DNA of 64,000 nt, taken from Escherichia coli (GTDB taxonomy: Bacteria; Pseudomonadota; Gammaproteobacteria; Enterobacterales; Enterobacteriaceae). The position numbers and the translations under genes were made by a program. Where the stretch lies: assembly GCF_041248615.1 (NCBI RefSeq), contig NZ_CP158426.1, one strand, 5' to 3'. Every line of letters starts with the position of its first letter. Position 1 is the first letter of the stretch. Shown here one piece after another: positions 7,473 through 9,698 of the stretch. The notes beneath the pieces were generated by a model. It was not told the origin of the DNA and did no database searches. It saw nothing but the letters and a program-made list of their open reading frames with translations.

Positions 7473-9698
7473 GGCGCAGCGAATGATACTACCATTAAAG
7501 GCGGGCGCTTAATTATTGAAAAAGATGGGATTACCGTCTTTGCCGCTATCGAAAAGGGAGGATTACTGGAGGTTAAAGAGGGGGGATTAGCATTTGCGGT
7601 AGATCAGAAAGCCGGCGGTGCGATTAAAACAACCACCCGGGCCATGGAGGTATTCGGAACAAACCGTCTCGGTCAGTTCGATATCAAGGATGGTATTGCT
7701 AATAATATGCTGTTGGAAAACGGCGGAAGTTTGCGAGTTGAAGAAAATGACTTCGCTTATAATACCACTGTGGATAGTGGCGGCTTACTGGAGGTTATGG
7801 ATGGCGGGACTGCAACTGGCGTTGATAAAAAAGCAGGCGGAAAATTAATTGTCTCAACGAATGCGCTGGAAGTGAGTGGTACAAACAGTAAAGGCCAATT
7901 TAGTATAAAAGATGGTGTGTCCAAAAATTATGAACTGGATGATGGTTCCGGGCTCATTGTTATGGAGGACACGCAGGCCATTGATACTATCCTTGATGAG
8001 CATGCCACTATGCAATCGCTGGGAAAGGATACTGGTACGAGAGTGCAGGCAAATGCGGTGTATGATCTCGGTCGATCAGATCAGAATGGAAGTATCACGT
8101 ATTCCTCTAAAGCCATCTCTGAAAATATGGTTATCAACAATGGCCGCGCTAATGTCTGGGCTGGCACAATGGTTAACGTTTCAGTCAGAGGGAATGATGG
8201 CATTCTTGAGGTCATGAAGCCGCAAATAAATTATGCACCCGCTATGTTGGTGGGTAAGGTAGTGGTTTCTGAGGGCGCTTCTTTTAGAACGCATGGTGCC
8301 GTGGATACCAGCAAAGCGGATGTTTCGCTCGAAAATAGCGCATGGACCATCATTGCCGATATCACTACGACGAACCAAAACACTCGCCTCAACTTAGCCA
8401 ACCTTGCGATGTCTGGCGCAAATGTGATTATGATGGCTGAGCCAGTGACTCGTTCATCTGTGACGGCAAGTGCGGAAAATTTCACTACGTTGACCACCAA
8501 TACCCTATCGGGAAACGGCAATTTTTATATGCGTACTGATATGGCTAATCATCAGAGCGATCAGCTCAACGTGACCGGTCAGGCAACAGGTGATTTCAAA
8601 ATATTTGTGACGGACACAGGGGCCAGCCCGGCAGCAGGTGATAGCCTTACACTGGTAACAACGGGCGGCGGTGATGCTGCATTTACGTTGGGCAATGCCG
8701 GAGGCGTTGTTGATATCGGTACGTATGAATATACCTTGCTGGATAATGGCAACCATAGCTGGAGTCTGGCAGAGAATCGCGCGCAAATTACCCCTTCAAC
8801 CACTGATGTGCTGAACATGGCAGCAGCACAACCGCTGGTATTTGATGCAGAACTGTACACCGTGCGTGAGCGTCTTGGTAGCGTAAAAGGCGTTAGTTAC
8901 GATACGGCGATGTGGAGTTCGGCAATTAACACCCGCAACAACGTGACCACTGATGCGGGAGCTGGCTTTGAGCAAACATTGACGGGCCTGACGCTCGGTA
9001 TCGATAGCCGTTTCTCCCGTGAAGAAAGCAGCACAATTCGCGGCTTGTTCTTTGGTTACTCTCATTCTGATATTGGTTTTGATCGCGGCGGCAAAGGTAA
9101 TATCGATAGCTACACCCTGGGGGCTTATGCCGGTTGGGAGCATCAGAACGGTGCCTATGTTGATGGAGTGGTGAAAGTTGACCGTTTTGCCAACACCATC
9201 CATGGCAAGATGAGTAATGGAGCAACAGCGTTTGGCGATTACAATAGTAACGGCGCGGGTGCTCATGTCGAGAGCGGGTTCCGTTGGGTTGACGGATTGT
9301 GGAGTGTTAGACCCTATCTGGCCTTTACCGGCTTTACCACAGATGGTCAGGACTACACGTTATCAAATGGCATGCGCGCGGATGTGGGAAATACCCGCAT
9401 ATTACGCGCTGAAGCGGGAACGGCGGTAAGCTATCACATGGACCTGCAAAACGGTACGACGCTGGAACCCTGGCTGAAAGCCGCCGTGCGTCAGGAATAC
9501 GCCGATTCTAACCAGGTGAAAGTTAATGACGATGGCAAATTTAATAATGATGTGGCTGGAACCAGTGGCGTTTATCAGGCTGGGATAAGGTCATCGTTTA
9601 CCCCGACGTTAAGCGGTCATTTGTCTGTCAGCTATGGCAATGGCGCAGGGGTAGAATCACCGTGGAATACTCAGGCGGGTGTGGTCTGGTCGTTCTGA
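7473..9698 (+). pseudogene. yejO: Autotransporter adhesin YejO, 5'-truncated remnant abutting IS1
   Basis: Frame open from the IS1 right edge (first ATG at 7644); repetitive passenger segments and C-terminal beta-barrel ending ...VVWSF; no signal peptide. Confidence 0.85.

Follow-up and report, generated by a model that had tools for sequence, protein, structure and literature searches.

The yejO gene in this stretch of Escherichia coli DNA, a chromosomal autotransporter gene, has very probably been inactivated by an IS1-associated deletion that took away its 5' part. A complete IS1 element stands where an intact allele has 523 bp, made up of 157 bp upstream of the start codon and the first 366 coding nucleotides (122 codons), and the 3' 86% of the gene persists as an open reading frame directly behind the element. 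The window (the whole stretch analyzed, 64,000 nucleotides) matches the chromosome of E. coli isolate NRZ14408 (NZ_LT599825.1) at 100% identity, and we mapped the PGAP features of that record onto it (window position = L001 coordinate + 3399). That the gene is defective is already known, as PGAP names the frame “autotransporter YejO” and flags it as a pseudogene (“incomplete... missing N-terminus”), and at this level it is an ordinary IS1-truncated pseudogene; what we add is the extent of the lesion to the base (IS1 plus a 523-bp deletion covering 122 codons), how it probably arose, how recent it is, and how rare.

The gene order at the locus is ccmH, narP (minus strand), IS1, yejO, tRNA-Pro(GGG) (minus strand), yejM, and yejL (Table 1). 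We assign the remnant to the YejO orthologue group on the basis of its sequence identity and its position between narP and tRNA-Pro(GGG)/yejM, with neighbors as in K-12 and other strains. A search of positions 6000 to 10200 against Rfam at gathering thresholds recovered tRNA-Pro and no other RNA gene.

Table 1. Features of the yejO locus in window coordinates
Feature	Position	Strand	Remarks
narP, nitrate/nitrite response regulator, intact	5895..6542	-	Divergent left neighbor; PGAP and ORF
narP-yejO intergenic region, kept part	6543..6704	.	Identical to the intact allele L002 up to L002 position 3305
GAATTTTG, left copy only	6697..6704	.	8 bp; flanks IS1 as a duplication in L003 and L006, the simple-insertion alleles
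IS1 (IS1B-type), complete	6705..7472	+	768 bp; imperfect terminal inverted repeats; PGAP “IS1-like element IS1B family transposase”
insA/insAB' transposase CDS	6760..7457	+	Programmed frameshift; insB part 6954-7457, TAA at 7455-7457
Weak candidate IS1/flank fusion promoter	7459..7487	+	Found by eye; -35-like TTGGAG 7459-7464 (IS1 right end), 17-nt spacer, -10-like AATGAT 7482-7487 (yejO)
yejO remnant	7473..9698	+	Codons 123-863 plus TGA; pseudogene by PGAP flag and L002 identity
ATG, earliest canonical in-frame start	7644..7646	+	Met180 of the intact protein; no Shine-Dalgarno, no leader peptide
AIDA-type passenger repeat, top-scoring stretch	7656..7841	+	Remnant residues 62-123; Pfam PF16168
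Pertactin-like passenger region	8397..8771	+	Remnant residues 309-433; Pfam PF03212, E 5.9e-45
Autotransporter beta-barrel translocator domain	8910..9629	+	Remnant residues 480-719; Pfam PF03797, E 2.1e-45
Terminator-like hairpin followed by a T run	9760..9790	+	3' of yejO
tRNA-Pro(GGG) (proL), right neighbor	9800..9876	-	ARAGORN; Rfam RF00005

The extent of the lesion could be fixed to the base by comparison with an intact gene. As the reference we used L002 (NZ_OW967178.1), which has no IS1 and whose yejO, complete with upstream region, ATG, and signal peptide, encodes a protein of 863 amino acids (WP_001590372.1); the same allele is present in L005 (NZ_CP128970.1). The window is collinear with L002 up to position 3305 of that sequence and resumes at 3829, with IS1 taking the place of positions 3306 to 3828, and the two differ at 0 of 904 nucleotides left of the element and 0 of 2328 to its right. 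The remnant matches residues 123 to 863 of WP_001590372.1 at 741 of 741 positions. How much of the N terminus is missing, a question that the preliminary description had left to a comparison with full-length yejO, is thus answered as 122 codons together with 157 bp of upstream DNA. The 523 bp include the ribosome-binding site, the ATG, a 29-residue signal peptide, about 93 residues of the mature passenger, and the proximal upstream region with any promoter that it contained. The intact protein begins MHQSGSVSLCRSAISVLVATALYSPIALA, followed after the cleavage site by STVEY; this N terminus reads as a typical Sec signal, with a basic n-region, a hydrophobic core, and an A-x-A cleavage site recognizable by eye. 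Neither the remnant nor its flanks carry a secondary mutation, indicating that the event is recent and that the remnant is a very recent pseudogene free of secondary decay.

The remaining frame extends from 7473 to 9698 as 741 sense codons and a TGA (9696 to 9698), with a TAA right after it, and its product would end in ...AGVVWSF. The preliminary description had reported 742 codons open from the first base after IS1; that length stands if the stop codon is counted, but the frame is in fact already open from 7458, 15 nt within the element. It coincides with the frame of insB, an agreement that has a one-in-three chance of arising by accident, and its nearest upstream stop is the insB TAA at 7455 to 7457. 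We considered a read-through fusion of InsB and YejO, as the frame is common to both, but this TAA blocks it. A TTG in the right end of IS1 (7459) was also rejected as the start of a fusion, since it is out of frame and runs into a stop after 17 codons. On the far side of the element, the in-frame DNA is narP-yejO intergenic region and not yejO coding sequence, and it meets a TGA at 6645, exactly 20 codons back, consistent with the stop within 20 codons noted earlier.

No start codon of the usual kind is available near the junction. In-frame ATG, GTG, and TTG codons are all missing between 7458 and 7643, and the codons in frame ahead of the ATG at 7644 offer only rare starts (ATT, ATC, and CTG). 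Translation from this ATG would give a product beginning MEVFGTNRLGQFDIKDG (MEVFGTNRLGQ...), in which a hydrophobic leader is lacking: over the first 40 residues, the highest Kyte-Doolittle mean of any 12-residue stretch is 0.17, versus 1.86 for the N terminus of the intact protein. The open reading frames and the hydropathy comparison therefore agree with the preliminary description that the first in-frame ATG lies at 7644 and lacks a leader peptide and that the 5' end has neither a start codon nor a signal peptide, as no candidate N terminus has a hydrophobic leader. That description had named a start codon with a leader soon after IS1 as the observation that would speak against it, and the first 171 nt contain no canonical start and no leader.

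The element at the junction is an IS1 by its length of 768 bp, its imperfect inverted repeats, and its insA/insB' genes with a programmed frameshift. It starts with GGTGATGCTGCCAACTTACTGAT and finishes with ATCAATAAGTTGGAGTCATTACC, so that the terminal repeats to be compared are GGTGATGCTGCCAACTTACTGAT and GGTAATGACTCCAACTTATTGAT (the reverse complement of the right end), and it belongs to a multicopy family found at 8 places on the NZ_LT599825.1 chromosome. The 8- to 9-bp target-site duplication of IS1 is absent here: ...ACGGAATTTTG closes the left flank and GGCGCAGCG opens the right one, and the last 8 bp of the left flank, GAATTTTG, have no counterpart on the right. Missing duplications usually point to an adjacent deletion or to recombination between IS copies (PMC11708052); the absence of the duplication is the mark of a deletion and gives no ground to doubt the identity of the IS1.

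The gene is not simply interrupted. Its N-terminal part lies neither upstream of IS1 nor elsewhere in the assembly; it is deleted. None of the 16-mers of the 523-bp segment occurs within the window, and a query of the locus with the segment added recovered 8 places on the NZ_LT599825.1 chromosome, unchanged from the query without it, indicating that the segment is absent from the assembly. The segment is otherwise nearly ubiquitous, with matches in 5,414 of 5,426 complete E. coli genomes (more than 60 of which tie at 100%), always on the chromosome, and no copy on a plasmid in this collection. The 16-mer search, the unchanged place count, and the lack of a plasmid copy together rule out that the segment was relocated within the assembly by inversion or re-insertion.

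An error of assembly would be another way for the segment to vanish: the assembler could have collapsed the IS1 repeat and dropped the DNA, and the true genome would then hold two IS1 copies or a plain insertion. Collapse of repeats is a known failure of assemblers, IS1 occurs at 8 places in this genome, and the NZ_LT599825.1 record was deposited as linear. Against this, both junctions are base-clean, and the left one is a genuine IS1 site in independent assemblies; no stray contig preserves the segment, which the assembly lacks altogether; and a comparable IS1-plus-deletion allele, in which 161 bp were lost inside yejO, is present in another complete genome (L010, NZ_CP042901.1). We accordingly give this explanation hardly any credence.

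The order of events and the mechanism of the deletion are what we infer from alleles of the locus in other strains. In L003 (NZ_AP027822.1) and L006 (NZ_CP124471.1), IS1 sits at the identical left junction with GAATTTTG on both of its sides, and the yejO start is intact 165 bp downstream. An allele of this kind suggests a two-step route for the window, which we favor as the probable one. IS1 would first have inserted by simple transposition at this intergenic site, 157 bp upstream of the yejO ATG, generating the 8-bp duplication GAATTTTG; an intramolecular (adjacent) deletion would then have extended from the right end of IS1 into yejO, taking the right copy of GAATTTTG and the 523 bp, 531 bp in total. 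Intramolecular transposition of IS1 and Tn9 is known to yield deletions after which the retained element has no direct repeats, as one of the repeats is lost along with the deleted DNA (PMC9330008, section 5.2.1). The window conforms to the IS1/Tn9 adjacent deletions in that it keeps a complete IS1 with no duplication, an unaltered flank on the left, and a deletion whose edge coincides exactly with the right end of the element. It differs from them in that the ancestral single-insertion allele is seen solely in other lineages.

This last point bears on how the precursor is to be read. The IS1 copies of L003 and L006 are 99.1% and 98.6% identical to that of the window (7 and 11 nt of difference, respectively), their yejO flank haplotypes diverge from it by 2 to 5% (95 to 98% identity), and the haplotypes nearest to the window, L002 and L005, carry no IS1. 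These observations argue against common descent of the three insertions, which more likely represent independent hits on a preferred target, as far as can be judged from the sequences. Among the genomes compared, none has a simple insertion on the flank haplotype of the window itself, and because the same-site alleles have diverged, the precursor is deduced from a recurrent insertion site and not from a sister strain.

The main competitor of an adjacent deletion is recombination between two IS1 copies. Two insertions in the same orientation, one in the intergenic region and one at codons 122/123, followed by RecA-dependent recombination that removed the 523 bp and one of the elements, would likewise leave a lone IS1 without a duplication (PMC11708052), and judged by sequence the two routes would give an identical product. 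A second hit is not far-fetched, given that IS1 has struck the 5' part of yejO at many positions elsewhere (L004, L008, L010, and L011). Nevertheless, this route requires two insertions and a recombination where an adjacent deletion requires one insertion and one transposase-mediated event; an IS1 at the codon-122/123 site occurs in no other of the 5,426 genomes, the right junction being unique; and no genome has two IS1 copies bracketing the 523-bp segment. We therefore consider recombination unlikely and retain insertion followed by an IS1-promoted adjacent deletion as the preferred account.

What remains of the gene still encodes most of an autotransporter of the AIDA type. Searches of Pfam and NCBIfam bear out the preliminary reading of passenger repeats that lead into a beta-barrel ending ...VVWSF. 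The AIDA family (PF16168) matches over the whole protein with an E value of 9e-47 in 2 stretches, the TIGR04415 repeat is found in 2 stretches of the remnant versus 3 in the intact protein, and TIGR01414 covers remnant residues 334 to 741 (E 7.7e-110). Among solved structures, the closest to intact YejO are Ag43 (7koh, E 4e-37), an AidA-I family adhesin (7ko9), and TibA (4q1q), while Vag8, BrkA, and pertactin are structural relatives of its C-terminal half. YejO thus has in common with the self-associating type Va autotransporters AIDA-I, Ag43, and TibA the AIDA-type repeats, a pertactin-like region, and a C-terminal beta-barrel; the repetitive beta-helical passenger of the type is evident from Pfam, TIGR04415, and sequence similarity to the solved passengers of Ag43 and TibA, and the barrel closes with the expected terminal aromatic residue. 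Scores against the NCBIfam equivalog models are low (99 bits for Ag43 and 47 bits for AIDA-I, each against a cut-off of 1200 bits), indicating that YejO is a separate, shorter member of the AIDA-type family. The third hallmark of type Va, an N-terminal Sec signal peptide behind a start codon, is lacking in the remnant, which, unlike AIDA-I and Ag43, cannot work as an autotransporter.

In type Va autotransporters, an N-terminal signal peptide must first direct export through Sec; only then can the C-terminal barrel enter the outer membrane and present the passenger. An autotransporter that lacks this signal cannot reach the Bam machinery, and its barrel would misfold in the cytoplasm. With the promoter region, ribosome-binding site, start codon, and signal peptide gone, the remnant cannot make a surface protein. 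The earlier judgment that the gene is very likely nonfunctional is therefore upheld by the 5' truncation, the missing start and signal peptide, and the PGAP annotation. As the native 157 bp upstream and the ATG are deleted and none of the features of an expressed gene (promoter, ribosome-binding site, and start codon) is found, we also infer that the remnant is not expressed.

A leaderless cytoplasmic fragment with some residual or new effect could nonetheless be produced if read-through from IS1 or a fusion promoter at its end were combined with the ATG at 7644 or a noncanonical start. Fusion promoters whose -35 element comes from an IS1 end have been described (Prentki et al. 1986, as related in PMC9330008), and by eye we noted one candidate across the junction (Table 1). 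The suggestion in the preliminary description that an outward-reading IS1 promoter might drive a cytoplasmic fragment stands to this extent, but the consensus scan lends it no support: the candidate agrees with the consensus at just 7 of 12 positions, under the scan threshold, and no consensus promoter was found at the IS1/yejO junction, the recovered sites being the promoter in the left inverted repeat of IS1 (IRL; 6712 to 6739) and then one at 7678 to 7706, downstream of the ATG at 7644. Promoter-like sites in the region number 4, compared with a mean of 5.2 in shuffled sequence. Any transcript would, moreover, have no usable site of initiation; the 20 nt upstream of the ATG at 7644 (TTAAAACAACCACCCGGGCC) contain no Shine-Dalgarno sequence. 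A GGAGG motif does lie 4 nt ahead of the CTG at 7566, and a trace of noncanonical initiation at this codon is conceivable; CTG starts are, however, very weak in E. coli, which counts against residual expression. The frame is also intact, with 0 substitutions, which could speak for expression, but the recent date of the event explains this, the flanks being 100% identical too. Taken together, we regard residual expression as very unlikely.

The status of yejO in this strain parallels that in K-12 MG1655, where IS5K interrupts the gene (b2190) after 67 coding nucleotides and the annotation is that of a pseudogene; because IS5 has inactivated it, the K-12 gene has served as a neutral locus (PMC11005336). 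The two cases share the locus (ccmH-narP / yejO / proL-yejM/lapC), inactivation by an IS near the 5' end, and annotation as a pseudogene. They differ in that IS5 lies inside the coding sequence in K-12 and both fragments are kept, whereas the IS1 of the window marks an insertion point 157 bp ahead of the ATG and is accompanied by a 523-bp deletion that includes codons 1-122.

IS elements have repeatedly entered the DNA between narP and yejO and the 5' part of yejO: IS1 occupies the identical base in at least 3 lineages and at least 5 further sites within 750 bp, and IS5 is present in K-12. IS1 and IS5 are able to switch on the silent bgl operon. By analogy, recurrent hits might reflect selection on yejO expression rather than a mere preference for AT-rich targets, such that an upstream IS would activate a silent gene, later deletions would silence it, and the IS1 end might drive a leaderless fragment in the present strain; we consider this scenario far-fetched.

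The loss described here is of small biological import, being one more strain-private loss of an accessory, adhesin-like autotransporter whose K-12 gene is already a textbook pseudogene. For annotation, the pseudogene flag should be kept, and presence/absence screens for adhesin or virulence genes should leave the frame out. The locus has some value as an example, since it presents a clean IS1-associated deletion resolved to the base together with an extant allele of the precursor type. The junction between IS1 and codon 123 occurs in 1 of the 5,426 complete E. coli genomes (NZ_LT599825.1), and this uniqueness makes it a possible marker for tracking the clone. A different junction between IS1 and yejO is found in L011, for which PGAP annotates a CDS of 773 amino acids beginning at an ATA codon inside IS1; this CDS is probably an annotation artefact.

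The point at which IS1 entered the window is not unique to it; the identical base of the narP-yejO intergenic region carries IS1 in at least three backgrounds (the window, NZ_AP027822.1, and NZ_CP124471.1), with a common 8-bp duplication, GAATTTTG, and with 7 to 11 nucleotide differences between the IS1 copies. A fourth genome, NZ_CM129037.1, has an IS1 variant (95% identical) 12 bp from this site, flanked by a 9-bp duplication. The surrounding region has a GC content of 36%, and judging from these sequences the intergenic site upstream of yejO looks like a preferred IS1 target. 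Insertions of IS1 and IS5 alter expression of bgl, and by analogy upstream IS1 insertions may act as modifiers of yejO expression.

Further independent IS1 events lie inside the 5' third of yejO in other complete genomes (loci L004, L008, L010, and L011, at positions 3632 to 4060 in the coordinates of L002, the intact IS1-free allele of NZ_OW967178.1); some are simple insertions, located close to codons 59, 100, and 195, and in one allele IS1 is accompanied by a 161-bp deletion. Counting the IS5K copy of K-12 as well, insertion sequences have repeatedly disrupted the 5' part of yejO. The shared orientation of IS1 across the yejO hits stems from ascertainment by the query. The 523-bp 5' segment that IS1 replaced in the window was found at 5,833 places, was at least 80% present in a single place in 4,992 genomes, and was split or incomplete in about 420 of 5,414 genomes. 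In NZ_CP124471.1, yejO 3' of the same-site IS1 (L006, 4806 to 6075) has two additional internal deletions and an internal stop, and its loss there is by a route unlike that in the window.

In the window, insB and the yejO remnant share a reading frame (7455 to 7473), with nothing between them but the TAA that ends insB and five further codons (VGVIT); one junction in three would show such agreement by accident, and no functional meaning is attached to it. In NZ_LR882973.1 (L011, 1950 to 4271), PGAP calls an "intact" 773-amino-acid autotransporter (WP_432417362.1) whose first codon is an ATA 19 nucleotides within the right end of IS1; its N terminus (ISWSHYHDGYQ...) has no signal peptide, and the call is probably an annotation artifact rather than a genuine IS1-yejO fusion.

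On the right, the otherwise identical NZ_OW967178.1 departs from the window at 9848, within the tRNA-Pro(GGG) gene (L002, 6204 onward). Beyond this point its DNA is different, with genes for an ATPase of the AAA family, a hypothetical protein, and a DUF4760 protein alongside a transposase fragment, which indicates an island integrated at proL that is missing from the window.

Coordinates of duplications, deletions, and the neighboring tRNA gene
Feature	Sequence	Position	Strand
GAATTTTG	Window	6697-6704	
GAATTTTG copies	L003 (NZ_AP027822.1)	798-805 and 1574-1581	
GAATTTTG copies	L006 (NZ_CP124471.1)	around 4033-4040 and 4809-4816	
L006 yejO internal deletions	L002 coordinates	3934 to 4939; 5392 to 6025	
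tRNA-Pro GGG	Window	9800-9876	minus
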